A stretch of 41,113 bases of DNA from Verrucomicrobiia bacterium (GTDB lineage Bacteria > Verrucomicrobiota > Verrucomicrobiia > Limisphaerales > JADJPG01), in NCBI GenBank assembly GCA_035715125.1, contig DASTLJ010000484.1:1-41113 (forward strand), in the 5' to 3' direction. How positions within the stretch are numbered: the stretch's first letter is position 1; every line of letters starts with the position of its first letter. Shown piece after piece: positions 4,419 to 39,009 of the stretch. The position numbers and the translations under genes were made by a program. A model generated the notes under the pieces. The model was not told the origin of the DNA, ran no database searches, and was given only the letters and a program-made list of their open reading frames with translations.

Positions 4419-4557
4419 CTTGAAGCGCCAACTGGTTAAATCGTTAAAACGTTGAATCGTTAAATCGTTGAAGCGAGCTGGCGCGCTTGCACTTCAGCGG
4501 TTTAACGATTCAACGATTCAACGATTAAACGATTCAACGCTTCAACGCTTCAACGCC
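4419..4557. repeat. palindrome built from tandem ~8-nt units (CGATTCAA / TTGAATCG family)
   Basis: Left arm cttgaagcgccaactggttaaatcgttaaaacgttgaatcgttaaatcgttgaagcg. Right arm ggtttaacgattcaacgattcaacgattaaacgattcaacgcttcaacgcttcaacgcc. The arms are mutually reverse-complementary arrays. Lies between divergent genes. Confidence 0.85.
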
Positions 4558-4683
4558 TCATCGCCTAAAGCCCTCCCGCCACCCCGCCGTTCTACCTCCC
4601 GGCACAATGTCACCCATTGCTTCCGCGCCCCGCTTCGGCCACGCTCCCGCCGACAGGCACGGCGGCCTGGCAGATCTTGCAGG

Positions 4684-7600
4684 ATGCAAACGCTCCTCAT
4701 GAACCCCGCGCCCGGCGAGCGCCTCGTGCGCTTCGTCGGCGACCAGCTTTCCTTCAGTCTCGGCACCCCGGATGGCCGTCCGTTGCCCGAAGGCTGGCAG
4801 GCCCGGCTTCGCACCAACCTCGGCCGGGGTCATGTGCTGCGCCAGGAAATCATCCTCGCCCACAGCCGCAAACCCCAACTGGCCCTGGCCTCGTGGCGTG
4901 ACCTCCCGATGCGCCCCGACGCCGCGGGCATGTGGACGCTTTCGTTGCCACTCACAGAGGTGGGCTTTTTCAAGGCCAAGGCGTACGCCATCGATCCGTT
5001 GGGCCGCCAGCAGTGGCCCGACGGACCCGACTTCGGCATGAGCGTCCATCCCGACGCCTATCGCACGGCCAACACCCTCTACTGCGCCTTCCCGCGCATG
5101 TTCGGCCCATCGAAGAAGCTCGTCAGCACGGTCGATAAGCCGCTGGAGGCGCAGCTTCGCGTGCTCGATGCGAAGGATTTTACGGTCATCCCACCGTCCG
5201 GCAAATTGCGCGATCTCGTTGCAGAACTCCCGTTCATCATCGGCGAACTCGGTTGCCGCATCCTCCACCTGCTCCCGATCACTCCCACGCCCACGACCTA
5301 CGCGCGCTTCGGCCGGTTCGGGAGCCCGTACGCCGTGCAGGACCTGCTCGCCATCGATCCGGCGCTCATCGAGTTCGACAAACGCACGACCGGCGTGGAC
5401 CAGTTCCGCGAGCTGGCCTTCGCCACGCACGCGCGCGGCGCGAAAGTGTTCCTGGACCTGGTGATCAATCACACAGGCTGGGGAGCGACGCTTCACGAGC
5501 AGCATCCCGAATGGTACTTGCGCGCGAAGGACGGTTCGTTCGTTTGCCCCGGCGCCTGGGGAGTCGTCTGGGAGGACCTCGTGGAATTGGACCACCGTGA
5601 GCCCGCGCTCTGGGAGCACATGGCCGACGTCTTCCTCGAATGGTGCCGGCGCGGTGTGGACGGTTTTCGCTGCGACGCCGGATACAAGATCCCGGTCCCC
5701 GCCTGGCGATACATCACCGCGCGTGTGCAGGAGGAATTCCCGGAAACCGTCTTCCTGCTCGAGGGCCTCGGCGGTTCGTGGGAAGCCACGGAGAATCTCC
5801 TTACCGACGGCGCGATGCAGTGGGCTTACTCGGAGCTGTTCCAGAATTTTTCCCGCCAGGAAATTGCCAACTACCTCGACTACGCGCTCAAGCAAAGCCG
5901 CCGCGCCGGCCTCTACATCCACTACTCGGAAACGCATGACAACGACCGCCTCGCCCAGCTCGGCCGCAGTTGGTCGCTGTTGCGCAACCGGCTGTGCGGC
6001 TTGACCAGCGTCAGCGGCGGCTTCGGCTTCACTTGTGGCGTCGAGTGGCTTGCGACGGAAAAGATTAACGTCCATTCCAGCCGCGGCCTGGCGTGGGGCC
6101 AGGAGCCGAACCTGGTCGGCGAACTGGCGCAGCTCAACCGGCTGCTGGCGCAGCATCCGTGCTTCTTCGACAACGCCGCTCTGACGCGCCTGAGCGCGCC
6201 CGACGATCACGTTCTGGCGTTGCGCCGCGTCTCCGACGAGGGCGTCGACCAAACGCTGGTGCTGGTGAACACGGACCCGAAGATCGCCCGCTCGATCACG
6301 CTGGACCTGGAGACGTGGGAGGAACTCGGCTCGCCGCGCCACGATTTGCTCGGCCAAACGGCGCCCGCGATCAAGGAGCACGCCGAAGGCATCGAGATTG
6401 TGCTCAAACCGGCGGACTGCTTTTGCCTCGCCGAACAGCTCGAGCCTCGCGGCCTGGCCGGCGACGCCTACCGCGCGCTGCGCGCGCAGGCCGCCTGGGC
6501 CATCGCCATGATCACCTTGCGCATCCGCATGCGGCACCTGAGCGCATTTGACTGGCGGGAGATGGCCTCGCGAGTCCAGGCCGGCGCAAAACCATTCCTC
6601 GCAGCCGTCAGGTACCTCGACCCTGCGCTGGTGAAGGAGGACGCGCTCGCCGCGCTGAAGCAGGCCGCGGCGGTCGAACGCTTCCCGCCCGTGGTGACGT
6701 GGGATCATTCCAACGCCAGCCGCGTGACCCTCGTGCCTTGCGACCATTGGCTGCTGGTCGAGGAGGACGCGCCCTTCCGCGCCGTTCTCAAGCCGGACGA
6801 CACGTCCTTCCCCGGACACGCCGCATCGATTCGCATCGGCACCCGCTACTTTGCCAGCTTTGCCCCCGCCCGGCCGCCCGGCGACGCGACGTTGAAGCTG
6901 GAGCGCTACGACGGCGAACCGAAGTTTGTCGAGGCCCGTATCCGCTTCATCGATCTGCCAAAAGAAAATCCGCAATCCGCAGTCCGCAATCCGCAATGCC
7001 TGGTCCTTCTCACCAATGGCCTCGGCGGCATGGCGCGACTGGCGGTCGATCTGGGCCAGGTTTATTCCAAGTACGACTGCCTGCTCGGCGCCAACCTCCA
7101 TCCCGCCTTGCCCGTGGACCGCCACATCCTGGCCAAGCGCGCCCGCGTTTGGATCGACGCCGACGGCTTCAGCACGCCTCTCAACTTCGACAATCTGCTC
7201 GATTTCGAGCTGCGCCCCGTCGCCCAGTGGCGCTTCCTGGCCAGCGCCGGCGACGACCGGGCCGTCGAAGTGCGCCTGTGCGCCGACATGCTCGAAGGCC
7301 GCAACGTCACCGTGCTCCAGTTCCATCGACCCGACGCCGCGCCGCGCGCCGGGCATGATCTGGCTCCCGAGTGCCGCGTGTCCCTCACCGTGCGCGTGGA
7401 CATCGAGGACCGCAATTTCCACACCGAAACGCAACGCAACTCCGGCGCCGAACATCACTTCGCCTCCCACACGCGCACGTTGGGCGACCAAACCGGATTC
7501 GAGTTCGCTCCCGCGGTGGACCGCCGGTTGCGCGTTTTCGCCGACCACGGGCTTTATCATCCGCAGCCCGAGTGGAGCGAACACATCGAGCATCCGGTCG

Positions 7601-9027
7601 AAGCGACGCGCGGCCAGACGGCGCACGGCGACGCGTTCAGCCCCGGCTGGTTCGAATTGCCGCTGCCCAAAGGCCAGACTGTCACGCTCGTGATCAGCGC
7701 CGACCCCGTGGATCCAACCGCTGCCGAGTTGAAGGGCTTCGTCGAGCAACGCGAGGCTGCTGATGTGAAACTGCTGCGCGACGCGGATCTCCAGCGCGGC
7801 GACCGCTTCGGGCGCGAGCTGGCGCTGGCCCTGCGCGCGTTCGTCGCGAGGCGCGACCGCGGCCGGACCATCATCGCGGGCTACCCGTGGTTCCTCGATT
7901 GGGGGCGCGATTCGCTCATCTGCGCTCGCGGCCTGCTGGCCGCCGGCATGACCGATGAAGTGCAGCAATTGCTCACGGTTCTTGCCCACTTCGAGGATCG
8001 CGGCACGCTGCCCAACACGATTCGCGGGGAAGACGCTTCCAATCGCGACACCACCGACGCTCCGCTCTGGTTTGGCATCGTCTGCGAGGAACACGCTGAA
8101 ACAATGACCCGCGCCCGCGCCACGGCGTTTTACGCGACGCAGGTCGATCACCGCGGGCGCACCGTGGCCGATGTGCTGCAGTCCATCGCCTGCGGCTTCC
8201 GCGACGGCACACCCAATGGCATCCGGATGGATCCCGAGTCCGCGCTGGTCTGGAGCCCGAGCCACTTCACCTGGATGGACACCAGTTTCCCCGCCGGCAC
8301 CCCGCGCGAAGGCTACCCGGTCGAAATCCAGGCGCTGTGGGTGCGCTTGTTGCGGCAAGTCGCCCGCCTCGCCGGCCGCGGGGAAGGCGACGAATGGGCT
8401 GCGCTCGCCCAGCGCGCCGAGCAGTCCCTGCTCGAAAAATACTGGATCGAAGAACTTGGCTGGATCGCCGATTTGCTCGTGGCGGCGCCGTCGGTGCCCG
8501 CGCGCGACGCGGAGCAGGACACGTCCCTGCGGAGCAACGGCCTGCTGGCCGTCAGCCTGGGTTTGCTGACGGGCCAACGGGCCCGACGCACCGTGGACGC
8601 GGCGCTGCGGCACCTGGTCGTGCCGGGCGCGCTGCGGTCACTGGCGCCTTTGCCCGTTTCACCGCCGCTGCCCATTCACGGGCGGGACGGCCAATTGCTC
8701 AATGATCCCAGGAATCCCTACCGGGGCCGCTACGAAGGCGACGAGGACACGCGCCGCAAGCCCGCCTACCACAATGGCACCGCCTGGACGTGGACCTTCC
8801 CTGTCCTCTGCGAAGCAATTGCGCGAGCGTGGGATTTTGAGGAGGAGGCGGTGGCCGCCGCCCGTTCTTACCTCGGCAGCATGGACCAATTGCTCCGCGA
8901 AGGCTGCATTGGCCAGATTCCCGAAATCCTCGACGGGGACGCTCCGCACGCCCAGCGCGGCTGCGACGCGCAGGCCTGGGGCGTGACGGAGGCGCTGAGG
9001 GTGTGGAAGCTCTTGAGCAAGTCGTGA
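4684..9027 (+). CDS. fusion protein: GH13 alpha-amylase-family (GlgE-like) module + archaeal-type glycogen debranching enzyme (GDE_N + amylo-alpha-1,6-glucosidase GDE_C)
   Basis: GH13 regions I-IV: VFLDLVINHTGW, GFRCDAGYKIP, FLLEGLGG, YSETHDN. GDE N-domain: LLTNGLGGMARL...YDCLLGA. GDE_C: IIAGYPWFLDWGRDSLICARGLL, EIQALW, AYHNGTAWTW. Start taken at ATG 4684 (MQTLLMNPAPGERLVRF). The track start 4468 reads through the repeat element 4419..4557. Confidence 0.85.
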   Translation: MQTLLMNPAPGERLVRFVGDQLSFSLGTPDGRPLPEGWQARLRTNLGRGHVLRQEIILAHSRKPQLALASWRDLPMRPDAAGMWTLSLPLTEVGFFKAKAYAIDPLGRQQWPDGPDFGMSVHPDAYRTANTLYCAFPRMFGPSKKLVSTVDKPLEAQLRVLDAKDFTVIPPSGKLRDLVAELPFIIGELGCRILHLLPITPTPTTYARFGRFGSPYAVQDLLAIDPALIEFDKRTTGVDQFRELAFATHARGAKVFLDLVINHTGWGATLHEQHPEWYLRAKDGSFVCPGAWGVVWEDLVELDHREPALWEHMADVFLEWCRRGVDGFRCDAGYKIPVPAWRYITARVQEEFPETVFLLEGLGGSWEATENLLTDGAMQWAYSELFQNFSRQEIANYLDYALKQSRRAGLYIHYSETHDNDRLAQLGRSWSLLRNRLCGLTSVSGGFGFTCGVEWLATEKINVHSSRGLAWGQEPNLVGELAQLNRLLAQHPCFFDNAALTRLSAPDDHVLALRRVSDEGVDQTLVLVNTDPKIARSITLDLETWEELGSPRHDLLGQTAPAIKEHAEGIEIVLKPADCFCLAEQLEPRGLAGDAYRALRAQAAWAIAMITLRIRMRHLSAFDWREMASRVQAGAKPFLAAVRYLDPALVKEDALAALKQAAAVERFPPVVTWDHSNASRVTLVPCDHWLLVEEDAPFRAVLKPDDTSFPGHAASIRIGTRYFASFAPARPPGDATLKLERYDGEPKFVEARIRFIDLPKENPQSAVRNPQCLVLLTNGLGGMARLAVDLGQVYSKYDCLLGANLHPALPVDRHILAKRARVWIDADGFSTPLNFDNLLDFELRPVAQWRFLASAGDDRAVEVRLCADMLEGRNVTVLQFHRPDAAPRAGHDLAPECRVSLTVRVDIEDRNFHTETQRNSGAEHHFASHTRTLGDQTGFEFAPAVDRRLRVFADHGLYHPQPEWSEHIEHPVEATRGQTAHGDAFSPGWFELPLPKGQTVTLVISADPVDPTAAELKGFVEQREAADVKLLRDADLQRGDRFGRELALALRAFVARRDRGRTIIAGYPWFLDWGRDSLICARGLLAAGMTDEVQQLLTVLAHFEDRGTLPNTIRGEDASNRDTTDAPLWFGIVCEEHAETMTRARATAFYATQVDHRGRTVADVLQSIACGFRDGTPNGIRMDPESALVWSPSHFTWMDTSFPAGTPREGYPVEIQALWVRLLRQVARLAGRGEGDEWAALAQRAEQSLLEKYWIEELGWIADLLVAAPSVPARDAEQDTSLRSNGLLAVSLGLLTGQRARRTVDAALRHLVVPGALRSLAPLPVSPPLPIHGRDGQLLNDPRNPYRGRYEGDEDTRRKPAYHNGTAWTWTFPVLCEAIARAWDFEEEAVAAARSYLGSMDQLLREGCIGQIPEILDGDAPHAQRGCDAQAWGVTEALRVWKLLSKS
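6967..7000 (+). repeat. one-armed heptamer array inside a CDS (AATCCGC x4 + partial unit)
   Basis: aatccgc aatccgc agtccgc aatccgc aatgcc, translated in frame as NPQSAVRNPQC, immediately before LVLLTNGLGG (start of the GDE module). Confidence 0.8.
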
Positions 9028-9029: not shown

Positions 9030-9111
9030 GGATTTACGATTTACGGGCAAGTGGGTGAAACGCCCGAGCGAGCGAACGGCGCGTAAATCGTAAATCGTAA
9101 ATCGTAAATCC
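9030..9111. repeat. palindrome with heptamer-array arms (GATTTAC / CGTAAAT)
   Basis: ggatttacgatttacgg ...35 nt... cgtaaatcgtaaatcgtaaatcgtaaatcc. 16-nt perfect complementarity, available in several registers. Confidence 0.9.
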
Positions 9112-9113: not shown

Positions 9114-9902
9114 ATGGACATCATCGCCCACCGCGGTGCCTCGCACGAAGCGCCCGAGAACACGCTCGCGTCCGTCCGCCTCGGTTGGGCGCAGGGCGCG
9201 GACGCGGTGGAGGTGGACGTGCGCCAATCCCGCGACGGCCACATCGTGGTCATCCACGACGCTCATACGCGCCGGACCGCAGGCGTGGCCCGGCGCGTGC
9301 GCGCGCAGACGCTCGACGAGTTGCGCGCGCTCGATGTCGGGCGCTGGAAACATCCGCGCTTCGCCGGAGAAAAGATTCCGACGCTCGCGGACGTCCTCGA
9401 AACCGTCCCGCCCGGCAAGCGCCTCTTCGTCGAAATCAAATGCGGCCCCGAGTGCCTGCCGCAATTCGTCGACGCGGTGAAGCGCTCCGGGAAGAGCCCT
9501 TCGCAAGTCCTCCCCATCGGGTTCGATCTGACGACGATGAAGCTGGTGAAGTGGGCGCTACCCGAATGGGAGGTGGCGTGGGTCCAGGGCTTCCGCCGGA
9601 ACTGGCGCGGCGGCTGGACTCCCACCGCCGAGAGACTGATCGCCCAGGCGAAGGAAGCCGGCCTCGATGCGCTCGACCTCGGTGGGCGCGGCCCGGTGAA
9701 CCAGACGTTCGCGTCCAAGGTTCATGCGGCGGGTCTCAATCTCTACATCTGGACGGTCGACTCTCCCGCGAAAGCCTCGCGTCTGGCAGCCGCAGGCGTG
9801 GATGGAATCACGACCAACCGGCCTTCGTGGTTGCGGGAGAAACTGGCACGGCACGGAGTCCCGGCTTTAGCCGGCGGAGCAAGCGAAAGCATGCCGCGGT
9901 AG
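9114..9902 (+). CDS. glycerophosphodiester phosphodiesterase (GlpQ/UgpQ family)
   Basis: MDIIAHRGASHEAPENTLASV...GADAVEVDVRQSRDGHIVVIHD is the GDPD signature. The last ~15 codons and the TAG stop lie inside inverted repeat 9855..9940. Confidence 0.85.
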   Translation: MDIIAHRGASHEAPENTLASVRLGWAQGADAVEVDVRQSRDGHIVVIHDAHTRRTAGVARRVRAQTLDELRALDVGRWKHPRFAGEKIPTLADVLETVPPGKRLFVEIKCGPECLPQFVDAVKRSGKSPSQVLPIGFDLTTMKLVKWALPEWEVAWVQGFRRNWRGGWTPTAERLIAQAKEAGLDALDLGGRGPVNQTFASKVHAAGLNLYIWTVDSPAKASRLAAAGVDGITTNRPSWLREKLARHGVPALAGGASESMPR

Positions 9903-9940
9903 GCATGGCCGGACGCATCACCGGCTAAAGCCGGGACTCC
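9855..9940. repeat. REP/MITE-like element with 20-bp perfect terminal inverted repeats
   Basis: ggagtcccggctttagccgg (9855-9874) and ccggctaaagccgggactcc (9921-9940) are exact reverse complements. The internal part also has a catgcc..ggcatg stem. Confidence 0.9.
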
Positions 9941-9981
9941 ATGCTTACAGCGCGACACGCTCAAAGCAGATCCGGGAGCGA

Positions 9982-10517: not shown

Positions 10518-11072
10518 ATGAGCATCGCGACGCGCACGGGCGACGACGGCACGACGGGGCTGATGTATAACCGGCGCGTCTCGAAGTGCCATCCGCGCGT
10601 CGAGGCCTACGGTAGTGTCGATGAACTCAATGCGGCGCTCGGCGTGGCACGGGCTGCGGCTGAACATGATTTCGTCCAGCGGCACCTGCTCGTGACGCAG
10701 GAGGATTTGGTCATACTAATGGGCGAGCTGGCGACGCTCCCGGAAGATCGCGGGCGCTATGTGAAGGATGGCTTCAAACTCGTCACCGCGGAGCTGACGG
10801 CGAAACTCGACGCACTGGTCAAGGAGATCGAGGCGCAGAATGTTTCGTTTAAAGGCTGGGCGACGCCCGGTCAAACCGAAGCCTCCGCCGCGCTCGACGT
10901 AGCGCGCACGACTTGCCGTCGCGCCGAACGCCGTGTGTGCGCACTGCGCGAGGCGGGGCAATTGGGCAACGATGAGATTGGCGTTTACCTCAATCGCCTC
11001 TCGGACGCGCTTTGGCTGCTGGCGCGGTGGGTCGAAACGCAGGCCGCGCTCGTTACATCGGGACGAGCTTGA
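10518..11072 (+). CDS. cob(I)yrinic acid a,c-diamide adenosyltransferase, PduO type
   Basis: MSIATRTGDDGTTGL...RVEAYGSVDELNAALG is the PduO-type N-terminal motif. 184 aa. Confidence 0.85.
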   Translation: MSIATRTGDDGTTGLMYNRRVSKCHPRVEAYGSVDELNAALGVARAAAEHDFVQRHLLVTQEDLVILMGELATLPEDRGRYVKDGFKLVTAELTAKLDALVKEIEAQNVSFKGWATPGQTEASAALDVARTTCRRAERRVCALREAGQLGNDEIGVYLNRLSDALWLLARWVETQAALVTSGRA

Positions 11073-12445: not shown

Positions 12446-12547
12446 GTAGGGCGGGCGTCTCGCTTGCCCCGCCGCGCCGAAAGGCGCGGCTTTCGCATCA
12501 CCTGGGCCTCGCTTCGCTCGGCCGGGCCGGCGAGACGCCTGCCCTAC
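12446..12547. repeat. 102-bp MITE-like element, copy 1 (terminal hairpins GTAGGGC(A/G)GGCGTCTCGC...)
   Basis: gtagggcgggcgtctcgcttgccc ... gggccggcgagacgcctgccctac. The internal 54 nt are near-identical to copy 2 (27987..28088). Confidence 0.9.
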
Positions 12548-14956: not shown

Positions 14957-15077
14957 GGAAACCACGGATGGACACAGATGAACACGGATTTCGGTGGGGA
15001 ACGTCCCTCCTAATGGGTGAACCCGCTTGCAGTCGCAACGATTTCTTATCCGTGTTCATCTGTGTCCATCCGTGGTT
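14957..15077. repeat. palindrome with decamer-array arms (CACGGATGGA/CACAGATGAA)
   Basis: Left arm ggaaaccacggatggacacagatgaacacggat. Right arm atccgtgttcatctgtgtccatccgtggtt. 29-30 nt perfect complementarity, 58-nt spacer. Confidence 0.9.
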
Positions 15078-15234
15078 ACAACTCCTCTGAGGCTGATTCC
15101 AAGTCGCTCCAACCTCCCGCTGGAAACCTGCCCGGTGGCGGACTACATTCCCCACATGAAGCCCGCCGCGCTCAAGGCCGGAACTCCTTCTCCCCCCACT
15201 GTTGCCGTATTTCCGGGAAGGCGCCGCTCCCCGC

Positions 15235-15272
15235 TTTCACGTTTTACGTTTCACGTTTTGCGCTTTTCGTTC
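15235..15272 (+). repeat. solitary heptamer array (TTYACGT-like x5)
   Basis: tttcacg ttttacg tttcacg ttttgcg cttttcg ttc, ending 5 nt before the AAA+ ATG (15278). No inverted partner seen. Confidence 0.7.
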
Positions 15273-15277
15273 TGCCC

Positions 15278-16795
15278 ATGACCATTCACCACGAAATCGA
15301 AACGCTCATCCGCGCCCGCTACCCGCTGCTCTACGTCGTCACAAGCGAGGAGACCCGCGTGCAGGAGTTGTTGCTCGACATCGCGGCCAAGCGCCAAAAG
15401 AAACTTTACGAATGGAGCTGCACGACCGGCCTGGCGCTGGCCGGCGCGTCCGTGCAGACCGTAAGGCCGCGCAACCCGGCCACCCGCGAGCCGCTGGCCG
15501 CGCTCGACGAGGTCATCGCGCACGTCGAGCCGGCGGTGTACCTGTTCAAGGATTTGCACCCGTTCCTGGGCAAGCCGGGCTTCACCGTCACGCGCCGGCT
15601 CAAGGAAATCGCCCTGCACCTCAAGCACAGCTACAAGACCGTTGTGCTCGTTTCGCCCGTGCTCGAAATCCCCGTCGAGCTGGAGAAGGAGATCACCGTC
15701 CTCAACTTTCCGCTCCCGACGCGCGAGGAATTGACCGCCCTCCTTCACCAGATTTTGGCCGACGTCGCGCAGTTCAAGAACGTCGCCATCGACCTCGACC
15801 CCGCCGGCCGGGAGCGCCTTCTGCAAGCCGCCCTCGGCCTCACGCTCGGCGAGGCCGAAAACGTCTTCGCGAAAATCCTCGTGAAAAGCCAGCGCCTGGG
15901 AGTGGAAGACGTCGGCGAAGTGTTCGCAGAGAAACAGCAGATCATCCGCAAGAGCGGCCTGCTCGATTATTGCACGGGTGAGGAGTTCTCTCATGTCGGC
16001 GGTCTGGCCCTGCTGAAAGGCTGGCTGGGCAAGCGCGCGCTGGCCTTCAGCGATCAGGCGCGCGATTTCGGCCTGCCGGCGCCTAAGGGCATCCTGCTGC
16101 TGGGCGTGCAGGGTTGCGGCAAAAGCCTGTGCGCGAAAGCTGTTGCGAGCCTTTGGCAACTGCCACTGCTGCGCTTCGACATCGGCCGCATGTTCGGCAG
16201 CCTGGTCGGCTCGTCGGAGGAAAACGTCCGCCGGGCCATCGCCGTGGCCGAGTCGATCGCGCCCGCGGTGCTGTGGGTGGACGAAATCGACAAGGCGTTT
16301 GCCGGCGCCCAAAGCTCCTGGAGCGGTGACGGCGGCACGACTGCGCGCGTCTTCGGCACGTTCCTCACCTGGCTGTCGGAGAAGACGGCGCCGGTCTTCG
16401 TCGTCGCCACAGCCAACGACATCTCGAACCTCCCGCCCGAGCTGCTTCGCAAAGGCCGTTTCGATGAGATTTTTTTCGTGGACCTGCCCGCGCCGGGCGA
16501 GCGCGAGGAGATTTTCCGAATTCACCTGGCCCGTCGCGGCCGCGACGTCTTGGCGTTCGACCTGCCCGCGCTGGTCGGGGCGAGCCACGATTTCAGCGGC
16601 GCGGAAATCGAACAGAGCGTCATCAGCGCGTTGTTCGACGCCTTTTCCGACCGCCAGGAATTGACGACTCCGCACGTCCTCGCCGCGCTCCGCGAAACCG
16701 TGCCGCTCTCGCGGACGATGGACGAGCAGATCGGCCGGCTGCGGGCGTGGGCGGAGGGGCGGGCCAGGAATGCGAGTGTGGCGAGAGGAGCATGA
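15278..16795 (+). CDS. AAA+ ATPase with N-terminal non-ATPase domain (Ycf46-like architecture)
   Basis: Walker [12 protein letters not shown], Walker [12 protein letters not shown], second region of homology [28 protein letters not shown]. The N-terminus [15 protein letters not shown] resembles recalled Ycf46-type proteins. Start at ATG 15278; the track start 15017 reads through repeats. Confidence 0.75.
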
Positions 16796-16890
16796 GTAAT
16801 CAGTAATCAGTATTCAGTATTCAGCCGGCCGAAGGGCGACCGCGCGCGCAACTGAATACTGAATACTGAATACTGACCTACTGAATACTG
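16794..16890. repeat. palindrome with heptamer-array arms (AGTAATC/AGTATTC ; TGAATAC)
   Basis: gagtaatcagtaatcagtattcagtattcag ...27 nt... ctgaatactgaatactgaatactgacctactgaatactg. The inner 18 nt are perfectly complementary. Confidence 0.9.
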
Positions 16891-16893
16891 GAT

Positions 16894-17163
16894 ATGTGGC
16901 AAGGCTTCTGTGAACACTTGAAGGAATGTGGCCGCAATGGCGCGCCGTTCTGCTTGGCCGTCGTGGCGGTGCTGTGCATGGGAGCGCTGGGCGACTGGGG
17001 GTTGGCCGTGTTTGCGGTGGTGCTCGCGGCGGGCATCGCCTGGGTGTGGGCGTCCGTAGCCGAACAGCGTCAGAAATTCGAAAGGCTCGGAAAAATGCCT
17101 CCGCTCTCGGAGAACGAATTGCATCGTGCCCGGTCAAAGCTGGTGGATCGTGCGAAGCACTGA
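16894..17163 (+). CDS. small membrane protein (2 predicted TM helices), hypothetical
   Basis: FCLAVVAVLCMGALGDWGLAVFAVVLAAGIAWVWA followed by a charged helical tail. ATG is 3 nt after the 3' arm of palindrome 16794..16890. The next gene starts 3 nt after its stop. Confidence 0.5.
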   Translation: MWQGFCEHLKECGRNGAPFCLAVVAVLCMGALGDWGLAVFAVVLAAGIAWVWASVAEQRQKFERLGKMPPLSENELHRARSKLVDRAKH

Positions 17164-17165
17164 GT

Positions 17166-18224: not shown

Positions 18225-18998
18225 ATGAGCCGTTTCGCCAATCTTGAATTCGGTCAGGAACCCGAGGGCGCGCCGCGACGGCACTCGGCCGGCCGCGACG
18301 AACAGCGCTGCCTGGATGATGCCCAGACCGCCTTCGAGCAGGCCGACTTCGAGGCGGCGCTGCGGGCCTTCTCCAAAGTGCTGGAGTTTAATCCGCACAA
18401 CGCGGCCGCCTGGGCCGGGCAGGTCCGCGCGCTCGTCGAACTGGGCGAGTTCAATGAAGCCAAGCTCTGGGCCGACAAGGCGCTGGAGCGGTTCCCCGAC
18501 GCCCACGAATTGCTCGCCGCCAAGGCCGTCGCCCTGGCGCGCCTGGGCGACACGGACGCCGCGATCGCCTTCTCCGATGCCGCGGTCGATTCGCAAGGCG
18601 ACACCCCGTACGTCTGGCTGGCCCGCGGCGACGTGCTCCTGGCTCGGGCGGAAAAACGGGCCGATTACTGCTTCGACAAGGCGCTGGCGCTGGCGCCGGG
18701 CGACTGGTTTGTGACGTGGCTGGCGGCGCGCGTGCGGGCGTTCTACCGGCAGTTCGCCATCGCGTTGAAGCTCGTCCAGCAGGCGCTCGCATTGAAGCCG
18801 GACCACACTGTATTGTGGCTCATGGCCGGGCAATGCCAGCAAGCACTCGGGTTGGTGGCTGCGGCGCGCAACTCGTATGGTCAAGTCTTACAGTTGGACC
18901 CGCGCCGGCTCGAAGCGCGCGACGCGATCCACGCCCTTGAAAATACGGGCCTCGCCGCGCGCATCGCCGCATGGTGGCGCAGATGGAATTCCAAATGA
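18225..18998 (+). CDS. tetratricopeptide (TPR) repeat protein
   Basis: Repeated A-x-x-F-x-K-A-L-E-x-x-P type helices (FSKVLEFNPHNAAAWAG, ADKALERFPDAHELL, CFDKALALAPGDW, VQQALALKPDHTVLW, YGQVLQLDPRRLEA). Starts 4 nt after the pseudopilin stop. Confidence 0.75.
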   Translation: MSRFANLEFGQEPEGAPRRHSAGRDEQRCLDDAQTAFEQADFEAALRAFSKVLEFNPHNAAAWAGQVRALVELGEFNEAKLWADKALERFPDAHELLAAKAVALARLGDTDAAIAFSDAAVDSQGDTPYVWLARGDVLLARAEKRADYCFDKALALAPGDWFVTWLAARVRAFYRQFAIALKLVQQALALKPDHTVLWLMAGQCQQALGLVAAARNSYGQVLQLDPRRLEARDAIHALENTGLAARIAAWWRRWNSK

Positions 18999-19122
18999 CG
19001 AATGACGAATGGAAACGACGGATACCGGATGAACTTTTCCACCATCCGTCCGATGCCCGCTTTCACGTAGCGATTCTACGGCAGGCCGCCTGTGCCCATT
19101 CGTCATTCGTCATTCGTCATTT
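18993..19122. repeat. palindrome with heptamer-array arms (AATGACG / CATTCGT)
   Basis: aaatgacgaatgacgaatgg ...83 nt... ccattcgtcattcgtcattcgtcattt. 20-nt perfect complementarity in two registers. The TPR gene stop TGA (18996-18998) lies in the left arm. Confidence 0.9.
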
Positions 19123-21405: not shown

Positions 21406-21406
21406 C

Positions 21407-21494
21407 GGTTGAAACGTTAAACCGTTGAACCGCCAACCGTTTTAACGATTCAACGCTTTAACGATTCAACGCTTATTCAACGCTTATTCAACGG
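21407..21494. repeat. palindrome of the same unit family as 4419..4557 (TTNAACG/CGTTNAA)
   Basis: ggttgaaacgttaaaccgttgaaccg / ccgttttaacgattcaacgctttaacgattcaacgcttattcaacgcttattcaacgg. Shares the string acgattcaacgctt with 4419..4557. Confidence 0.85.
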
Positions 21495-21960: not shown

Positions 21961-22015
21961 CCATTCGTGTTCATTCGTGGTTAAAGCCTGCTGTCCGAAA
22001 TTTCGTATGAATTTG
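21961..22015. repeat. solo half-copy of the 34661..34724 arm plus extension
   Basis: ccattcgtgttcattcgtggttaaagcctgctgtccgaaatttcgtatgaatttg versus 34670-34724 ccattcgtgttcattcgtggttaaagtccgctgtccggaattacgcgtggatttg (about 47/55 identical by eye). Confidence 0.85.
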
Positions 22016-27920: not shown

Positions 27921-27986
27921 GATGACAATGTTACCGGAAGACGATGGGCAAACAAGCGTCGGCTTCCAATCCGGCGGCGCGCCAAA

Positions 27987-28088
27987 GTAGGGCAGGCGTC
28001 TCGCCTGCCCAGCCGCGCTGAAAGGCGCGGCATTCGTACCACCTAGGCCTCGCTTCGCTCGGCCGGGCAGGCGAGACGCCCGCCCTAC
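27987..28088. repeat. 102-bp MITE-like element, copy 2
   Basis: gtagggcaggcgtctcgcctgccc ... gggcaggcgagacgcccgccctac. Same orientation and length as copy 1. Confidence 0.9.
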
Positions 28089-28249
28089 GTTGGCGGTTCA
28101 TAAGTGGACTGAACAAGCGTCCCCCTGCTCCGTACTCGTCGCGTCGAACCCTGAATCATCCTCCCTCGCCGCTCGTCATTCCTCATGCACACGCTGGCGC
28201 AATTCAACGCTGGCCTGGCCTTTGCCGGCGTGCTAGAAATCACGACACG

Positions 28250-34127: not shown

Positions 34128-34444
34128 GGTGCCAAACCAATAAAGCTTCCGCGCGCGTCTGGCAACCACTCCAGTGAACCGGGCGGGAGAAATCGGGCAG
34201 CCTGTTCGCGCGCTTCGGCCATCAGGCGCTCCAGACCATAAGCTCGCAAGGGGTTTTGGGCCAGCAGGCGTTCGGCGTGTTCGACTCGCGCCGCGTGCTG
34301 CACGGGGAGTTGGGGAGCGTCCGACCGCGCGTCTCGTTTCACAGCCAACATCCCGCTGGTAATGGCACAGGTGATGCCTTGCGCCCGGGCGCGGGTGACC
34401 AGCCCTTCGTAGAAGCGTTCGAGTTCGGCATAGCCCAATGGCAC
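34124..34444 (-). CDS. hypothetical protein (106 aa)
   Basis: GTG start. (M)PLGYAELERFYEGLVTRARAQGITCAITSGMLAV.... First gene of a three-gene overlapping set. May instead be the 5' part of one frameshifted gene together with 33906..34127. Confidence 0.45.
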   Translation of the reverse strand: MPLGYAELERFYEGLVTRARAQGITCAITSGMLAVKRDARSDAPQLPVQHAARVEHAERLLAQNPLRAYGLERLMAEAREQAARFLPPGSLEWLPDARGSFIGLAP

Positions 34445-34544
34445 GGGGAGTTGTTAGCGGCACGCGCGCCGTTCGTCGAGAACAAGGCGCGGGGCGTTGG
34501 GGATTGGAAGAATGGAGTGCTGGAGTGATGGGGTAATTCTTTTC

Positions 34545-34724
34545 AACCACGAATGGACACGAATCCACACGAATAGAAGCGGGCGCGAGATCAGCGCTCG
34601 GCCATGCAATGGTCATGGACGCAAGGGCCGGAATGCGGCTGGCGGCTCGCGCCAGCGTTGATTCGTGTCCATTCGTGTTCATTCGTGGTTAAAGTCCGCT
34701 GTCCGGAATTACGCGTGGATTTGG
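34545..34724. repeat. palindrome with decamer-array arms (CACGAATGGA family) plus 34-nt conserved 3' extension
   Basis: Left arm aaccacgaatggacacgaatccacacgaat. Right arm attcgtgtccattcgtgttcattcgtggtt (34661-34690). Extension aaagtccgctgtccggaattacgcgtggatttgg is shared with 21961..22015. Confidence 0.85.
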
Positions 34725-36709: not shown

Positions 36710-37016
36710 AGTTCTGCGGTCTAACCCCAACTCTGCATCAGATTTTTCCCGATGCCTTTGTTCCCGCGAAGTACGGAGCCCATCCAATCGAACGACGGGT
36801 TTGAACCCGGTGTCAAACCCCGCTCTGTAATGATGTAGGGTATCGCGGGCTGCGACTTGCGCGCTCCTCTTTCCGTTGCGTCAAACAGAAGGAATGGGTG
36901 TGAGGGCCAGCCGTTCGGTTCCTGACTCTTGCGGCGCAAATAAACAAACAGGGAAACAGGGATAGACAAGCTGGCTGAAAAGCCAGGAGTAAAAACAGAA
37001 AGGTGGTGAGAGTGTA

Positions 37017-37256
37017 ATGTTAAAGATAAATGAGACAGTTGCCGGGTATGATTTGGCTGAGTTGCTCCACGGTGAATCCGGGATCTTCGAGGCCACTTCG
37101 CCTGTCGGTGAGAAGTTCCAGTGCGTTTGTCGTGCAGGTGCTTCCATCAGTAATCTGCGCCCGATCACGGCACACACTGCGCCGGATTCACAGCAAAAGG
37201 CGTGGCGGGCACGGAAAATCGGCGAGCTACGGCTCGAACAACAAACAGTTGGTTAA
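37017..37256 (+). CDS. small ORF (79 aa) of doubtful status
   Basis: Preceded by the purine-rich aaaggtggtgagag. MLKINETVAGYDLAELLHGESGIFEATSPVGEKF... vaguely resembles the first beta-strands and G-loop of a Ser/Thr kinase. Sits in a 776-nt gene-poor, lower-G+C gap. Confidence 0.25.
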   Translation: MLKINETVAGYDLAELLHGESGIFEATSPVGEKFQCVCRAGASISNLRPITAHTAPDSQQKAWRARKIGELRLEQQTVG

Positions 37257-37485
37257 CCTCAACCCGCGGGGCGGAGTGTTCGCGCATTCCGCCACCGCGT
37301 TTGCGGCCCCTTAATCCTCCATTGGCGCCGCGTACCCCGCGCGCCAATCGGCGCGTGCGCGCAATGGGCGAATCCGCCGGGGCGCACCCGATCGATTCAA
37401 TTGCCTCCCCTCTTCTTTGTGTTTGTTTCCTTGAGGTCCTCTGGCACGATGTTTCCGCGCGCCGGTCTGAATTCGGCCTGCTCAG

Positions 37486-38868
37486 ATGGACAAAAACGCC
37501 CTTTGCCTCAGCTTGCTCAACGGCCAGTTCAAAGCGGCTGCGATGCGCAAGGGCGCCATCGCCGGCACCTGGGAGCGCGCCGAGCCGCTGGAGGACCTGG
37601 CTGGCCTGGGCCCAGTGCTCCGGGAAGCGGGTGAGCGCACCCGGCCCGCCAGCCGGCGCGTGGCCCTCGTGCTGGCGCATCCGCGACTGAGCCACCAGAT
37701 TGTTGAAGTGCCGCCGGCCCGCGGCTGGGCCGTGGAGCGTTTTCTGGAACGCCGCGTGCAAACCATCAAGCCGTTCGAAGGCCAGGCGGCGTGGAGTTCG
37801 CAGCCCGCGTTGCCCACCCGTAACGCCAATGCCCGCCTCGTTGATTTGCTGCCCAAAGACGTCGTGGAGCAGATCGGCCAGGGCTGTGCCGCGGCCGGCC
37901 TGCAATTGGAGCGCATCATCCCCGCCACCGCCGTGCTCAGCGCTCAATTGCGGGAGCTGCCGCTGGAGAAGGACGAAGTGGCGCTCCTGGCGGCGGTGAC
38001 CGGCCCAACGACCACGGTGGTCATCGGCCGGCGCGATGGCCGCGTGTGTCTGGCCCGCGTGTTAAGCAGCACATGGAGCACACAGCCCGAGCGGGTGGCG
38101 ATGGACCTTACGCGCACCGTCGGGTTCGTGAACCAGCAGTCGGGCCTGTCGGTCAGCAGCGCCTGGCTATTCGGCGCCGGCGCCGAGATGGAAGTGACTT
38201 ATCTGTCCTCCGCGCTCAAAATGCCCGTCCGGCTCAGCCCCGTACCTGCTTCGCCTTTCTATTGGGCCGAACAGGCTCTCAAGCTGCCGGTCAAAGACGA
38301 CGGCAATTTGGTCAGCCGTGAGGCGCGGGAAGCGCCGCTACGCCGTCGCATGCTGGCGGTGACGGCGGCGGTCGTGGTGCTCGTGCTCGTAGCGTCGCTG
38401 GCCGGCGCCGGCTTTCTCGAAGTGCTGCGCCGCAATGAACTGGACACCATCGCTGCGCTCGACTCCGACATTGCCAAGCTCCAGAGGCGCGTGCGGGATC
38501 TGGAACAGCGCGAGGCGCAGCTCAAGAGCAAACGCGAACTGGTCGAATTCGTGCGCGAAGGAACGCTGCCGCCGGTGCCCGGTTGGTTTCTCGGTTACGT
38601 CAGCGAAGCGGTGCCTCAAACGCTGGTCCTCACCCAGCTTCGGGTCGCGCGCACCAACGATCAATGGCTGGTAAATCTTGCGGGCACGCTCCATCCCACG
38701 ACCAACGCCGCTCCGTCTACGATCTTGCGCCAGGCCGTGACGACCTTGACCAACGAGCTGGCCACGGGTCCGTTTCATTTGAAGATCCACCAAAGCAACA
38801 TCGACGACGCTCCCGCCCAGCCCGCAGGCCCTAAGCATCAGTTCTCGATCGAGGGGGTTGCGCAGTGA
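37486..38868 (+). CDS. PilM-like / PilN-like fusion protein (pilus assembly platform), inferred from architecture
   Basis: About 290-aa cytoplasmic domain, one TM (MLAVTAAVVVLVLVASLAGAGFL), a coiled coil (IAKLQRRVRDLEQREAQLKSKRELVEF), then about 100 aa periplasmic. Followed by PilO/P/Q-like genes. No strong sequence motif recognised. Confidence 0.5.
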   Translation: MDKNALCLSLLNGQFKAAAMRKGAIAGTWERAEPLEDLAGLGPVLREAGERTRPASRRVALVLAHPRLSHQIVEVPPARGWAVERFLERRVQTIKPFEGQAAWSSQPALPTRNANARLVDLLPKDVVEQIGQGCAAAGLQLERIIPATAVLSAQLRELPLEKDEVALLAAVTGPTTTVVIGRRDGRVCLARVLSSTWSTQPERVAMDLTRTVGFVNQQSGLSVSSAWLFGAGAEMEVTYLSSALKMPVRLSPVPASPFYWAEQALKLPVKDDGNLVSREAREAPLRRRMLAVTAAVVVLVLVASLAGAGFLEVLRRNELDTIAALDSDIAKLQRRVRDLEQREAQLKSKRELVEFVREGTLPPVPGWFLGYVSEAVPQTLVLTQLRVARTNDQWLVNLAGTLHPTTNAAPSTILRQAVTTLTNELATGPFHLKIHQSNIDDAPAQPAGPKHQFSIEGVAQ

Positions 38869-38885
38869 ACAAGAAATGAGCAGAC

Positions 38886-39009
38886 GAAACCACGGATGGA
38901 CACAGATGAACACAGATAAGAGAGAGTTGAGAAGGGACCCAAGTTCACTGTTCCAGGAAGGCGCTTCAGCCGATCCTATCCGTGTGCATCTGTGTCCATC
39001 TGTGGTTTC
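38886..39009. repeat. second copy of the 14957..15077 palindrome family
   Basis: Left arm gaaaccacggatggacacagatgaacacagat. Right arm atccgtgtgcatctgtgtccatctgtggtttc. Three mismatches between the arms. The flank agaatggaaaccac is shared with the first copy. Confidence 0.9.

Follow-up and report, generated by a model that had tools for sequence, protein, structure and literature searches.

Paired arrays of short tandem repeats at bacterial gene boundaries have a close precedent in Xanthomonas campestris and Xanthomonas citri, in which tandem GGGAATC heptamers of two or more units are approximately 90% intergenic and lie mostly between co-directional genes, near the upstream open reading frame (ORF) (Rehm et al. 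2015, PLoS One 10:e0144275, PMC4692102). In 70 to 75 cases per genome, two convergent arrays on opposite strands form an inverted repeat capable of folding into a stem-loop; copy number and sequence differ at the same junctions between close species (PMC4692102). The original prediction knew of no formal description for the inverted arrays in the 41,113-nt stretch of DNA analyzed here (the window), but these Xanthomonas pairs had already been described and share with them the tandem intergenic arrays, the inverted pairing, and the variation in copy number and sequence at shared junctions. Whereas Xanthomonas uses one G-rich unit capable of forming G-quadruplexes, we find at least five AT-richer families with units of 7, 8, and 10 nt and no G-tracts, in a different phylum (Verrucomicrobiota). 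Unlike the Xanthomonas arrays, these families also occur in phages, their single arrays are oriented and proximal to start codons, and unit turnover is documented on both arms.

The TAACTGA direct repeats of marine Beggiatoaceae, cyanobacteria, and Bacteroidetes are likewise intergenic sets of 2 to 6 tandem heptamers, "forward" and a few nucleotides from start codons, with a patchy distribution across lineages and a proposed role in translation (MacGregor 2015, PMC4679880). They differ in having a single unit sequence, inverted in just one of 170 sets, and neither a hairpin architecture nor a link to phages is reported for them (PMC4679880). RAYT-associated REPs and REPINs are also short, many-copy extragenic repeats that stand singly or as inverted pairs, and pairs 20 to 100 bp apart fold into long hairpins whose spacers are poorly conserved (Di Nocera 2013, PMC3733652; Bertels and Rainey 2011, as cited there). 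A single REP already forms an imperfect palindrome and bears a GTAG or CGTC tag, whereas the arrays described here are untagged and not self-complementary. True GTAG-type palindromes are present elsewhere in the window, at 12446-12547 and 27980-28095.

Foldback-type transposons are eukaryotic, range from hundreds of base pairs to kilobases, and come with a known transposase and target-site duplications; we saw no such feature (size, transposase, or duplications) in the elements here. The likeness, as far as the cited accounts of FB, Galileo, and Tetris describe it, lies in inverted arms built of tandem sub-repeats and in the variable length of the arms and central part (PMC4079207, PMC3573991). 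The elements are neither REPs nor MITEs, nor are they CRISPR arrays, attC sites, or canonical terminators. Cluster K mycobacteriophages carry start-associated sequences, a short conserved motif a few nucleotides 5' of many starts, sometimes with nearby inverted repeats; this is a single 13-bp motif that includes a Shine-Dalgarno sequence, is not a tandem array, and belongs to another host phylum.

Inverted tandem-repeat arrays fill gene boundaries in the window

The source genome is a Limisphaerales-like member of the Verrucomicrobiia in which most genes lack Shine-Dalgarno sequences; few genes in the window have one. Long hairpins in which both arms are short tandem repeats are abundant in the intergenic spacers of this soil-type Verrucomicrobium. 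Using Tandem Repeats Finder (TRF) combined with reverse-complement matching, we detected eight inverted tandem-repeat arrays in 41 kb, all eight intergenic; when the 21 intergenic segments were shuffled 100 times with dinucleotides preserved, the count was 0.0 (maximum, 0). The pairs have periods of 7 (9031-9045 with 9082-9110, 16795-16824 with 16851-16894, and 18994-19011 with 19097-19121), 8 (4435-4472 with 4492-4564 and 21408-21432 with 21441-21493), and 10 (14963-14989 with 15048-15074, 34548-34574 with 34661-34687, and 38891-38917 with 38978-39004). An inverted-repeat finder returned arms of 24 to 56 nt with 79 to 100% complementarity and inter-arm distances of 18 to 92 nt, and RNA folding yielded z-scores of -4.0 to -9.2 for seven of the eight elements (-2.3 for 21403-21497). 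Judged from sequence, the arms could pair in multiple registers.

All nine loci of the original prediction are present at the positions it gave, and these tools, together with gene context, bear out its view of a common design with differing units at gene boundaries. The high density that it noted is borne out, at roughly one per 5 kb in this window, which is about 16 times that of 80 loci from related genomes (16 inverted arrays in 1.30 Mb). The elements and accompanying single arrays are as follows.

4420..4564, no strand assigned: element 1, inverted 8-mer array (TRF and inverted-repeat finder); 5' arm, GTTRAAYC x ~4.5 (4435-4475); 3' arm, TTCAACGN x 8-9 (4492-4564)
9030..9111, plus strand: element 2, inverted 7-mer array; GATTTAC x 2 (9031-9045) and CGTAAAT x 4 (9082-9110)
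14957..15077, plus strand: element 3, 10-mer hairpin, AACCACGGATGGACACAGATGAACACGGAT ... ATCCGTGTTCATCTGTGTCCATCCGTGGTT; z -9.2
15235..15271, plus strand: single heptamer array, CGTTTYA x ~5, 6 nt 5' of the ATG (15278) of an AAA ATPase gene
16794..16893, plus strand: element 4, inverted 7-mer array; AGTAATC/AGTATTC x 4, and CTGAATA x 3 with 2 more degenerate units; z -6.2
18993..19122, plus strand: element 5, inverted 7-mer array; AATGACG x 2.6 and CATTCGT x 3.6; z -5.5
21407..21494, no strand assigned: element 6, inverted 8- and 11-mer array of the TTCAACG family; z -2.3
21961..21982, minus strand: element 7, single forward 10-mer array, AACCACGAATGAACACGAATGG
34512..34531, plus strand: lone array, TGGAGTG-type 8-mer x 2.5, directly 5' of element 8
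34545..34690, plus strand: element 8, 10-mer hairpin of the CACGAAT subfamily; z -8.7
38886..39009, plus strand: element 9, 10-mer hairpin; z -7.6

The hairpins often fill the entire spacer, reaching from the stop codon of one gene to the start codon of the next. Element 2 does so between the TGA at 9025-9027 and the ATG at 9114 (z -4.0), as does element 4 between the TGA of the AAA gene (16793-16795) and the ATG at 16894, while the 5' arm of element 5 overlaps the TGA of a TPR gene (18996-18998) and its 3' arm stops 6 nt short of the ATG at 19129. Across these three elements and their orthologues, stems start at -6 to +8 nt relative to the stop codon and finish 0 to 6 nt short of the ATG. Element 3 starts 10 nt past the stop codon of an amylase-like gene. 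Element 8, with a GC-rich loop of 56 to 86 nt, starts 16 nt past the stop codon of ORF 34178-34528, with an FG-GAP/ASPIC gene downstream, and element 9 extends from 17 nt past the stop codon at 38868 to a point 37 nt short of the ATG at 39047. Element 1, for which the unit CGATTCAA at 4419-4557 had been read correctly as an 8-mer, occupies the divergent spacer between a POT transporter gene (minus strand, start 4342) and a glycogen-debranching gene (start 4699) and folds at -63 kcal/mol (z -8.5). Element 6 is flanked by convergent stop codons at 21405 and 21488.

Single oriented arrays are the elementary module

The palindrome, originally taken as the basic unit, proved to be a composite. The elementary module is a single intergenic array, typically 0 to 30 nt 5' of a start codon and in a family-specific orientation, and the palindromes are two arrays of the same family in inverted order, with stems of 25 to 35 bp. 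An ATG-initiated ORF begins within 30 nt downstream of 19 of 27 CGTAAAT arrays, compared to 4 of 27 on the other strand. For ACGAATG arrays, the corresponding figures are 12 of 24 and 2 of 24, with the ATG inside the last unit in 9 of those 12. Single 10-mer arrays in phages show the same kind of asymmetry, with a start within 20 nt in 22 cases in one orientation versus 6 in the other. This orientation rule is also obeyed in the window by element 2 (the start-proximal arm of which runs CGTAAAT to ATG, as in phages), by element 7, and by the array at 15235-15271. Element 7 had been described as a half copy at 21961-22015, yet RNA folding finds no hairpin there (z +0.7); it is a single minus-strand array whose last unit contains the ATG of the gene at 21488-21964, with an upstream flank (to ~22015) similar to that of the right arm of element 8.

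The repeat families are dispersed and shared with phages

The arms are copies of several dispersed short-repeat families with units of 7, 8, or 10 nt and 2 to 9 units per array. These families, each internally periodic, are CGTAAAT, ACGAATG, CTGAATA, TTCAACGN, and the 10-mer ACACRRATNN. All of them recur in related genomes, metagenomes, and phage contigs, 10 to 20 times above permuted control units, and they are common to Limisphaerales-type Verrucomicrobiota and their phages. A three-unit 10-mer arm is found in 92 viral stretches, and three-unit arrays of CGTAAAT, CATTCGT, TTCAACGN, and CTGAATA are found in 43, 23, 14, and 8, respectively, compared to 4 and 1 for permuted control units. The viral contigs encode terminase, portal, DnaB, and tail proteins, marking them as genuine phages; several families frequently occur together on one phage contig, and the single array is the commoner form there. 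The TGGAGTG-type 8-mer, a lone array in the window, builds hairpins in L056.

Elements 3 and 9 share an arm sequence and have unrelated loops. Exact matches to the 26-mer of this arm come from at least 107 distinct metagenome contexts, with the order of its non-identical units (GGATGG / AGATGA) fixed across more than 100, and an identical copy of element 9 is present in metagenome record WNGB01112196.1 (L334). The original exclusion of CRISPR stands, as does that of REPs and MITEs insofar as the arms are not self-palindromic, carry no GTAG tag or target-site duplication, and enclose unrelated loops; its denial of one conserved sequence in many copies fails, since each family is just that, as the 26-mer contexts and the presence of all families in phages attest. 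Some units are related, as had been suggested, with ACGAATG contained in CACGAATGGA and orthologous arrays drifting among CTGAATA, CGCAACA, and CGGAACA.

Elements are inherited, altered, and gained or lost among relatives

In relatives with 87 to 95% protein identity, elements are inherited at orthologous junctions and are also gained or lost whole between close relatives. We observed three outcomes: retention with a change in copy number, exchange of the unit on both arms, and presence or absence at tight junctions. Element 2 is kept in L181, L183, and L184 (four lineages including the window) with 2 to 4 units per arm and unrelated loops, and the orthologous junction in L181 carries the family of element 1. 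Element 4 has one unit fewer in L081, while in L083 and L084 the junction carries CGCAACA and CGGAACA in place of CTGAATA, with 5' arms that stay complementary. The array at 15235-15271 is kept with unit changes in L081, L083, and L084, and element 6 is kept with diverged units in L081 (11773-11878). Element 3 is absent from the orthologous spacer of L081, L083, and L084. L081 also lacks elements 5 and 7 and carries two elements missing from the window; at the site of element 5, two genes overlap by ATGA in L081, and L083, which also lacks the element, has a spacer of ~20 nt.

Possible roles of the arrays and hairpins

The hairpins look less like chance products than like a little-studied class of gene-boundary signals or selfish elements. 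The explanation that we favor, with a probability of about 0.5, is that the arrays act in RNA as leader, intercistronic, or ribosome-landing modules and the hairpins mediate translational coupling, a function that we infer from sequence and context. In the transcript, the arrays would be read by a conserved host factor, in a genome mostly without Shine-Dalgarno sequences. An inverted copy would sequester the leader module inside a hairpin, the base of which would juxtapose stop and start codons, so that initiation on the downstream gene would be tied to termination by a ribosome on the upstream one. Transcript ends and stability are likely to be affected secondarily, and the arrays probably spread by a mix of slippage, templated correction from arm to arm, and a degree of dispersal by copy-paste or recombination, in which phages take part.

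Several observations run against a leader and coupling role. Single 10-mer arrays at co-directional phage junctions lie on the same strand in 32 cases versus the opposite strand in 24 (by crude gene calls), just 6 of 53 single arrays in metagenomes have an ATG within 15 nt, and the start-proximal arms of elements 3, 5, 8, and 9 have the minority orientation of single arrays. The antisense fold is more stable than the sense fold in 8 of 14 hairpins, and G-U wobble thus shows no sign of selection on sense RNA. Elements 1 and 6, at divergent and convergent junctions, cannot act in coupling, and stems of -45 to -85 kcal/mol would strongly block initiation unless processed or unwound. A mobile element would explain at least equally well why identical arms of 26 to 30 nt stand beside loops and flanks that are unrelated.

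Such an element would be a selfish, non-autonomous mobile palindrome comparable to REPINs, MITEs, or Foldback elements, with arrays serving as binding sites for a transposase encoded elsewhere and no host function; its persistence in spacers would reflect the low cost of an insert that folds on itself. We consider this origin somewhat doubtful. It would account for presence or absence at tight junctions between genomes with 93 to 95% identical proteins (a 130-nt insert versus an ATGA overlap in a relative), for the recurrence of identical arms in more than 100 unrelated contexts, for hairpins nested within one another in L034 and L361, for AACCAC termini that face outward in every host hairpin, for fold stability without strand bias, and for the arrival of arrays in phage genomes. 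Those phages also hold back-to-back pairs, however, and at least half of all copies are single arrays, which are not excisable as a terminal-inverted-repeat pair and prefer a certain orientation and distance to start codons. Moreover, target-site duplications are not visible at 11 inspected hairpins, the interior is not conserved, the window contains no transposase gene, and elements 1, 2, 4, and 6 are inherited vertically at fixed junctions. The long stable stems immediately 3' of stop codons, including the convergent junction at element 6, could instead be non-canonical transcript ends (terminators without a U-tract, 3' exonuclease barriers, or RNase III sites punctuating operons, like enterobacterial REP/BIME), which we regard as unlikely. 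Canonical terminators are not in excess in the window (19 versus 17.5 expected), so that some other end signal would be needed, and in Xanthomonas, too, the distance between array and upstream ORF is ~28 nt (PMC4692102). Yet no T-run follows the element stems in the window, single arrays cannot form hairpins, sense-strand wobble bias is absent, and elements stand within apparently co-transcribed gene pairs, including genes that overlap in a relative.

Protein binding at the DNA level, with arrays as operators or as promoter-proximal or nucleoid/organization sites and inverted arrays binding symmetric oligomers, is improbable. It draws on the 10-mer family, which is kept across an order and its phages with a conserved ACACRRAT core, variable positions 9 and 10, and a period of exactly one helical turn; a 7-nt core with a 3-nt spacer and a period of 10 bp would resemble direct-repeat sites of winged-helix regulators. 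It is also consistent with the back-to-back arrays at divergent phage junctions, each oriented to its own gene, and with composite leaders, in which the 10-mer array invariably takes the upstream position. Periods of 7 and 8 nt, however, fail to hold one helix face, many arrays touch or include the start codon and so leave no room for a promoter, and sigma-70-like hexamers were not found beside the arrays. Neutral by-products of replication slippage in AT-richer spacers and template switching between quasi-palindrome arms, without selection on sequence or structure, would explain why copy number varies and why units are homogenized both inside an array and across the two arms; simple sequence repeats of heptamers are known to be prone to slippage (Mrazek 2007, as cited in PMC4679880). 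This very improbable reading is already disfavored by the control scans, given the excess of specific units over permuted controls, the fixed order of non-identical units, the positional and orientation preferences of the arrays, and a density ~16 times that of sister lineages.

Tandem arrays in inverted pairs fill gene boundaries

Direct reading of the sequence bore out the description of inverted tandem arrays at all nine loci of the original prediction. The loci, together with a further array that belongs to the same analysis, are as follows.

4420-4564, element 1, inverted tandem-repeat array
9030-9111, element 2, inverted tandem-repeat array
14957-15077, element 3, inverted tandem-repeat array
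16794-16893, element 4, inverted tandem-repeat array
18993-19122, element 5, inverted tandem-repeat array
21407-21494, element 6, inverted tandem-repeat array
21961-21982 (-), element 7, lone 10-mer array
34545-34690, element 8, inverted tandem-repeat array
38886-39009, element 9, inverted tandem-repeat array
15235-15271, CGTTTYA heptamer array before the AAA gene, conserved in relatives

TRF placed arrays of period 7, 8, 10 or 11 on either side of each locus, and an inverted-repeat finder paired arms of 24-56 nt that are 79-100% complementary and lie 18-92 nt apart. A stricter repeat detector recovered two of the eight paired elements, and a TRF-based detector was used to count inverted arrays. 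Defined as a TRF array with its reverse complement within 220 nt, eight inverted arrays were found in the window, versus none when the identical detector was run on 100 dinucleotide-preserving shuffles of the 21 intergenic segments (6.5 kb). The elements are therefore in excess over shuffled intergenic DNA, contrary to the outcome that would have refuted the original prediction. The RNA folding that had been proposed as a check gave z scores of -4.0 to -9.2 against shuffles for seven elements and a marginal fold (z -2.3) for element 6, which lies at a convergent junction. The supposed half copy at 21961-22015 is a single array that, tested at 21955-22040, has no fold (z +0.7).

A gene map built from Pfam assignments and from gene calls on near-identical public contigs places every element between genes, which include DUF1501, BatA and ASPIC/UnbV types. 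The elements form local AT-richer dips in DNA of 63.6% G+C. For the AAA ATPase, the 80 best-matching genomes are all Verrucomicrobiia, Limisphaerales or subdivision 3 MAGs, at no more than 75% identity, which makes the assignment of the window to an order tentative. Elements 2, 4 and 5 fill the whole spacer, with a stem that starts a few nucleotides from the upstream TGA, or overlaps it, and ends 0-6 nt before the downstream ATG. This geometry is drawn only from junctions that visual inspection or gene calls in databases had verified, as automated assignment of neighboring stops and starts is noisy because of spurious antisense ORFs in GC-rich DNA. The 3' arm is longer than the 5' arm in five window elements, an asymmetry that is absent in orthologues and on which we therefore make no claim.

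Elements gain and lose units in close relatives

Protein searches identified syntenic contigs from relatives (L081, L083, L084, L181, L183 and L184, with 87-95% identical proteins), as well as a same-species contig, L087, that is 99.8% identical. Comparison of orthologous spacers revealed the variation in unit number that the original prediction had proposed looking for. At the GDE|GDPD junction (element 2), an ATTTACG/CGTAAAT hairpin is present in 4 of 4 lineages with 2-4 units per arm; in every case it abuts both TGA and ATG, and its loops are unrelated across the four lineages. Elements 1 and 6 are also kept in relatives, with diverged units. In the window and L081, the junction after the AAA gene (element 4) carries CTGAATA units, with three versus two clean 3' units; L083 has CGCAACA units there, and L084 both CGGAACA and CGCAACA. 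The 5' arm is complementary in all four, with 0-1 mismatch except in L084, where it is degenerate. Relatives at 85% identity or less have a plain spacer of 20-30 nt at this junction.

Whole elements also differ. Elements 3, 5 and 7 are absent from L081, and at the site of element 5 the two genes overlap by ATGA in L081 and are separated by a spacer of ~20 nt in L083. L081 has hairpins of its own that are absent from the window, namely one of CACGAAT units between the two ABC-2 genes and one of CCGAAAT type that follows the FtsJ-like gene. That the elements evolve by gain and loss of units, by homogenization across both arms and by gain and loss of whole elements is firmly established. No indels separate the window from L087 in elements 1 to 4, so the arrays are not hypervariable on that time scale. 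The 99.8% identity to L087 extends to window position 18922 (L087 19086), after which the last 130 nt are unrelated; the break falls ~70 nt before element 5, and SNPs are clustered at 18648-18909. Either the assembly broke at the repeat here, or this may be the edge of a recombination event between strains.

Array families are shared with related genomes and phages

The high density claimed for this DNA holds: the window has one inverted array per 5 kb, versus 16 that the same detector found across 1.30 Mb of sequence taken from 80 related genomes, or ~1 per 81 kb. Units that recur between related genomes include CACGGAT-type 9- to 11-mers, AACATCC, TGGAGTG, GAGGAC, CGGAATG, CCGAAAT and CGCGAAT, and one related contig (L034) has a hairpin nested within another hairpin.

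A 30-nt pattern representing a three-unit 10-mer arm was found in 92 stretches of IMG/VR contigs. The matched contigs code for terminase, portal, DnaB, and head and tail proteins and are thus genuine phages. Exact three-unit arrays of the other families were likewise present in viral contigs (CGTAAAT in 43 stretches, CATTCGT in 23, TTCAACGN in 14 and CTGAATA in 8), with permuted heptamers of the same composition in 4 and 1 stretches, and on several phage contigs two to four array families occur together. At least 120 metagenome stretches, with at least 107 distinct contexts, contain the exact 26-mer from the arm that elements 3 and 9 share. Among the matches listed, these comprise 54 hairpins, with loops of 13-144 nt, and 53 single arrays; the loops of the 54 listed hairpins are unrelated save at evidently orthologous loci. 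The 10-mer unit has the logo ACAC-RR-AT-NN, in which RR is commonly GG, GA or AG and rarely AA. Because the non-identical unit order (GGATGG, AGATGA) is kept in all listed 26-mer contexts, the 10-mer arm is a specific, internally periodic sequence of ~30 nt and not a freshly slipped microsatellite.

It is firmly established that the elements are real, non-random and drawn from several dispersed sequence-specific families, and equally that these families are common to a verrucomicrobial clade and its phages. One phage single array (L166 2234-2263; L298 ~4590-4620) is the exact 30-mer of the left arm of element 3 and lies 11 nt upstream of an ATG; it possibly marks a phage of this or a closely related host.

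Single arrays tend to point toward start codons

Most phage copies of the 10-mer (88 of 120) are single arrays. By strict count nearly all heptamer copies in phages are single as well, although visual inspection shows degenerate partners for several TTCAACG and a few CGTAAAT copies. For the heptamers, we scored ORFs of 50 codons or more whose ATG lies no more than 30 nt downstream. Such an ORF follows CGTAAAT arrays in 19/27 cases, versus 4/27 on the opposite strand. Arrays of the CATTCGT family occur mainly as ACGAATG reading into ATG (12/24 versus 2/24), and in nine of these the last unit itself contains the ATG. Among phage 10-mer single arrays, 22/88 lie within 20 nt of a start, versus 6/88, and the arrays typically begin ~5 nt after the previous stop codon. 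At divergent phage junctions two arrays stand back to back, each directed at its own gene.

Composite phage leaders repeat one order, in which a 10-mer array is followed by another hairpin and then by a CGTAAAT array and the ATG. They are found at L205 ~8340-8470, L175 1730-1795 and L188 ~3390-3470 and in L201; the CGCGAAT hairpin in the middle is present only sometimes. Within the window, the arrays at 9082-9110, 15235-15271 and 21961-21982 follow the start-codon rule. Strand agreement of 10-mer single arrays with flanking genes, based on crude ORF calls, was not significant (32 versus 24), and a start lies within 15 nt in only 6 of the 53 listed metagenome single arrays; the start-codon preference is weaker outside the phage ORF tests. 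We regard it as firmly established that the basic building block is one array with a set orientation and that hairpins are a derived arrangement.

The arrays resemble Xanthomonas heptamer repeats

The closest precedent for the window arrays is the paired heptamer SSRs of Xanthomonas (Rehm 2015). The GGGAATC repeats there form 186 arrays, with 70-75 pairs convergent and hence inverted repeats; they lie between aligned ORFs, near the upstream gene, and differ between sister species (PMC4692102). The window arrays are likewise tandem (two or more units), mainly intergenic and situated between aligned ORFs, and their pairs consist of one unit, convergent and close together. Unlike the Xanthomonas GGGNATC units, which have G-tracts, can form G-quadruplexes and prefer four copies, CGTAAAT, ACGAATG, CTGAATA, TTCAACGN and ACACRRATNN contain no GGG tract. 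The single arrays behave like the TAACTGA repeats of Beggiatoaceae, forward direct repeats a few nucleotides upstream of starts (MacGregor 2015, PMC4679880), although TRF found no TAACTGA array in the window, where the nearest unit is ATACTGA in element 4. In contrast to both cases, the arrays described here have a vocabulary of several 7-, 8- and 10-nt families without G-quadruplex potential, are shared with phages, show documented unit turnover on both arms and are unusually dense.

Exclusion of the better-known repeat classes stands. Single arms are direct repeats, not the 20- to 40-nt imperfect palindromes of REPs, and have no GTAG/CGTC tag: the 10-mer family terminates in AACCAC, its flanks are tag-free, and GTAG occurs in the window only in separate GC-rich palindromes. 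The arrays do share with REP/REPIN sequences their many extragenic copies, both single and in inverted pairs (54 pairs and 53 single arrays listed). REPs go together with a RAYT (Y1 transposase) gene, and the 41 kb at hand from this genome contain no transposase. They are not MITEs, as reading of 11 hairpins found no target-site duplication and flanks that merely extend the palindrome (GGAAACCAC...GTGGTTTCC); there is no conserved interior, the loops of elements 3 and 9 being unrelated, and no autonomous IS partner was seen. Nor are they CRISPRs, since the units are contiguous, 7-11 nt long and spacer-free versus interspaced repeats of 24-48 nt. The arrays likewise lack at least one defining feature of Foldback elements.

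Arm sequences searched as text were not mentioned in the literature collection used, and keyword searches of that same limited collection returned no description of comparable arrays in Verrucomicrobiota. Nevertheless, the design is not unprecedented given the Xanthomonas arrays (PMC4692102), although the original prediction knew of no formal description. The original prediction is thus supported in part: the shared design at gene boundaries and its separation from CRISPR, REP and MITE are upheld, while the palindrome as the basic unit and the absence of a known formal description are not.

Several other candidates were rejected. A terminator scan called no element as an intrinsic terminator, and the stems, at 25-35 bp, have no T-run. 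Integron attC sites have RYYYAAC / GTTRRRY cores that bound promoterless cassettes beside an intI integrase. By eye the units of elements 1 and 6 fit GTTRRRY, but their flanking genes are large, syntenic housekeeping genes and no integrase was found. DnaA-box and ECF-sigma -35/-10 readings gave weak matches by eye with inconsistent spacing. The CsrA SELEX consensus reportedly has the core ACA-N-GGAUG, which the unit ACAC-GGAUG-A matches; CsrA was rejected as a general explanation because GAAU and AGAU each occur in a quarter of the units and whole CACGAAT subfamilies contain no GGA.

Possible roles of the arrays

We favor a role at the RNA level, as leader or intercistronic modules, with a probability of roughly 0.5. 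Four observations argue for it: single arrays adjoin start codons in a preferred orientation, Shine-Dalgarno-like motifs are rare (~3 of 29 genes, in the 40 nt upstream of the window's start codons), phages carry the array vocabulary before unrelated genes, and hairpins 2, 4 and 5 join the upstream stop and the downstream start at the stem base. That geometry is expected for coupling via ribosome-mediated unwinding, and also for a neutral insert at an ATGA-type junction. Fold energies show no preference for the sense strand, with antisense more stable in 8 of 14 comparisons, so G-U wobble does not indicate selection for a hairpin in the sense RNA. The chief competing explanation is a selfish element of the REPIN or Foldback kind, which would account for the insertion polymorphism, the nesting, the identical arms with unrelated loops and the lack of strand bias. 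We regard it as unlikely; it leaves the positional preferences of single arrays unexplained, the 11 hairpins have no target-site duplication, and Pfam assignments include no transposase gene in the 41-kb window. A terminator or stabilizer without a U-tract, a DNA-binding array and neutral slippage are weaker explanations.

A more specific form of the RNA-level role, which we consider quite improbable, is that the arrays are a modular, Shine-Dalgarno-independent code that governs how translation is initiated and coupled. The units in mRNA leaders would be read by a conserved RNA-binding factor of the host, for example a single-strand binder of the S1 or cold-shock type, and the clade's phages would copy the vocabulary to plug into host expression. 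An inverted copy would make the leader a switch, with downstream translation conditional on upstream termination, and the families would differ in position, the 10-mer array lying upstream and the CGTAAAT array beside the ATG.

The arrays bear on the question of how start codons are chosen, and how genes within operons are coordinated, without Shine-Dalgarno sequences in Verrucomicrobiota and several other phyla. They offer dense, sequence-defined candidate signals exactly at stop/start boundaries, common to the clade's phages, which makes the question testable. Should they prove selfish, the arrays would represent a bacterial equivalent of Foldback-type elements and would show clearly how both arms of a hairpin evolve in concert. 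Either way they provide a handle on gene-boundary signaling or on new selfish DNA in a phylum so far unexplored in both respects. In practice, the arrays break assemblies and produce spurious small ORFs in MAG annotation, and they could act as markers tying phages to Limisphaerales hosts.

Other repeats and signals in the window

Canonical terminators are not enriched in the window (19 versus 17.5 expected), and none coincides with an element; a canonical promoter scan of the window found no association with elements, and an Rfam 15 scan at the gathering score, with a tRNA scan, gave no match at any element. The sole Rfam hit in the window, outside the elements, is a full-length Acido-Lenti-1 motif at 23955-24000 (46 bits, E 1.8e-7). 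This motif, named for Acidobacteria and Lentisphaerae, sits in a 327-nt spacer before the FtsJ-like gene, along with three nested or adjacent palindromes (23799-23940, 23824-23982 and 23873-23933, within a feature at 23799-24000).

GTAG-tagged REP doublets are abundant in the verrucomicrobium Opitutus terrae (Di Nocera et al., PMC3733652). Two divergent spacers of the window contain GC-rich palindrome pairs starting GTAGGGC(A/G)GGCGTCTCGC... (12446-12547 and 27980-28095), which look like such doublets and a class separate from the arrays. In the related contig L181, spacers are dominated by REPIN-like palindromes, while arrays dominate the window genome; five near-perfect long copies, GTAGCTGCGACCGTGAGGTCGCGG...CCGCGACCTCACGGTCGCAGCTAC, occur within 20 kb (10730-10865, 14645-14740, 16100-16200, 17130-17210 and 19670-19740). 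A further repeat type, not based on arrays, is the palindrome at 9851-9944, which has 24-nt arms (GCACGGAGTCCCGGCTTTAGCCGG / CCGGCTAAAGCCGGGACTCCATGC) and reaches from the end of the GDPD coding region into the convergent spacer.

Several window genes begin directly after a repeat array or C-rich runs. The AAA ATPase leader of ~190 nt is kept in four lineages (window 15090-15277, L081 4660-4832, L083 1115-1284 and L084 250-468); it contains CTGGAAAC..GGACTACATTCC and what may be a short ORF, ATGAAGCCCGCCGCGCTCAAGGCC, terminates in the CGTTTYA heptamer array and, at 15090-15277, has no Rfam match. Heptamer arrays also occur within coding regions, AATCCGC x 4.4 in a debranching-enzyme gene (6967-6997) and GCAATCG x 4.9 in a radical-SAM gene (27133-27166), where a period of 7 is unusual for an ORF. 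A segment of 776 nt (36710-37485) has no convincing gene or RNA family and includes an A-rich stretch (36940-37040) with the lowest GC of the window. The right edge of the window cuts a GC-rich tandem repeat of 12/24 nt at 41040-41109 (CGGGCGGAGGCGCCGGCGGAGGAG x 2.3).
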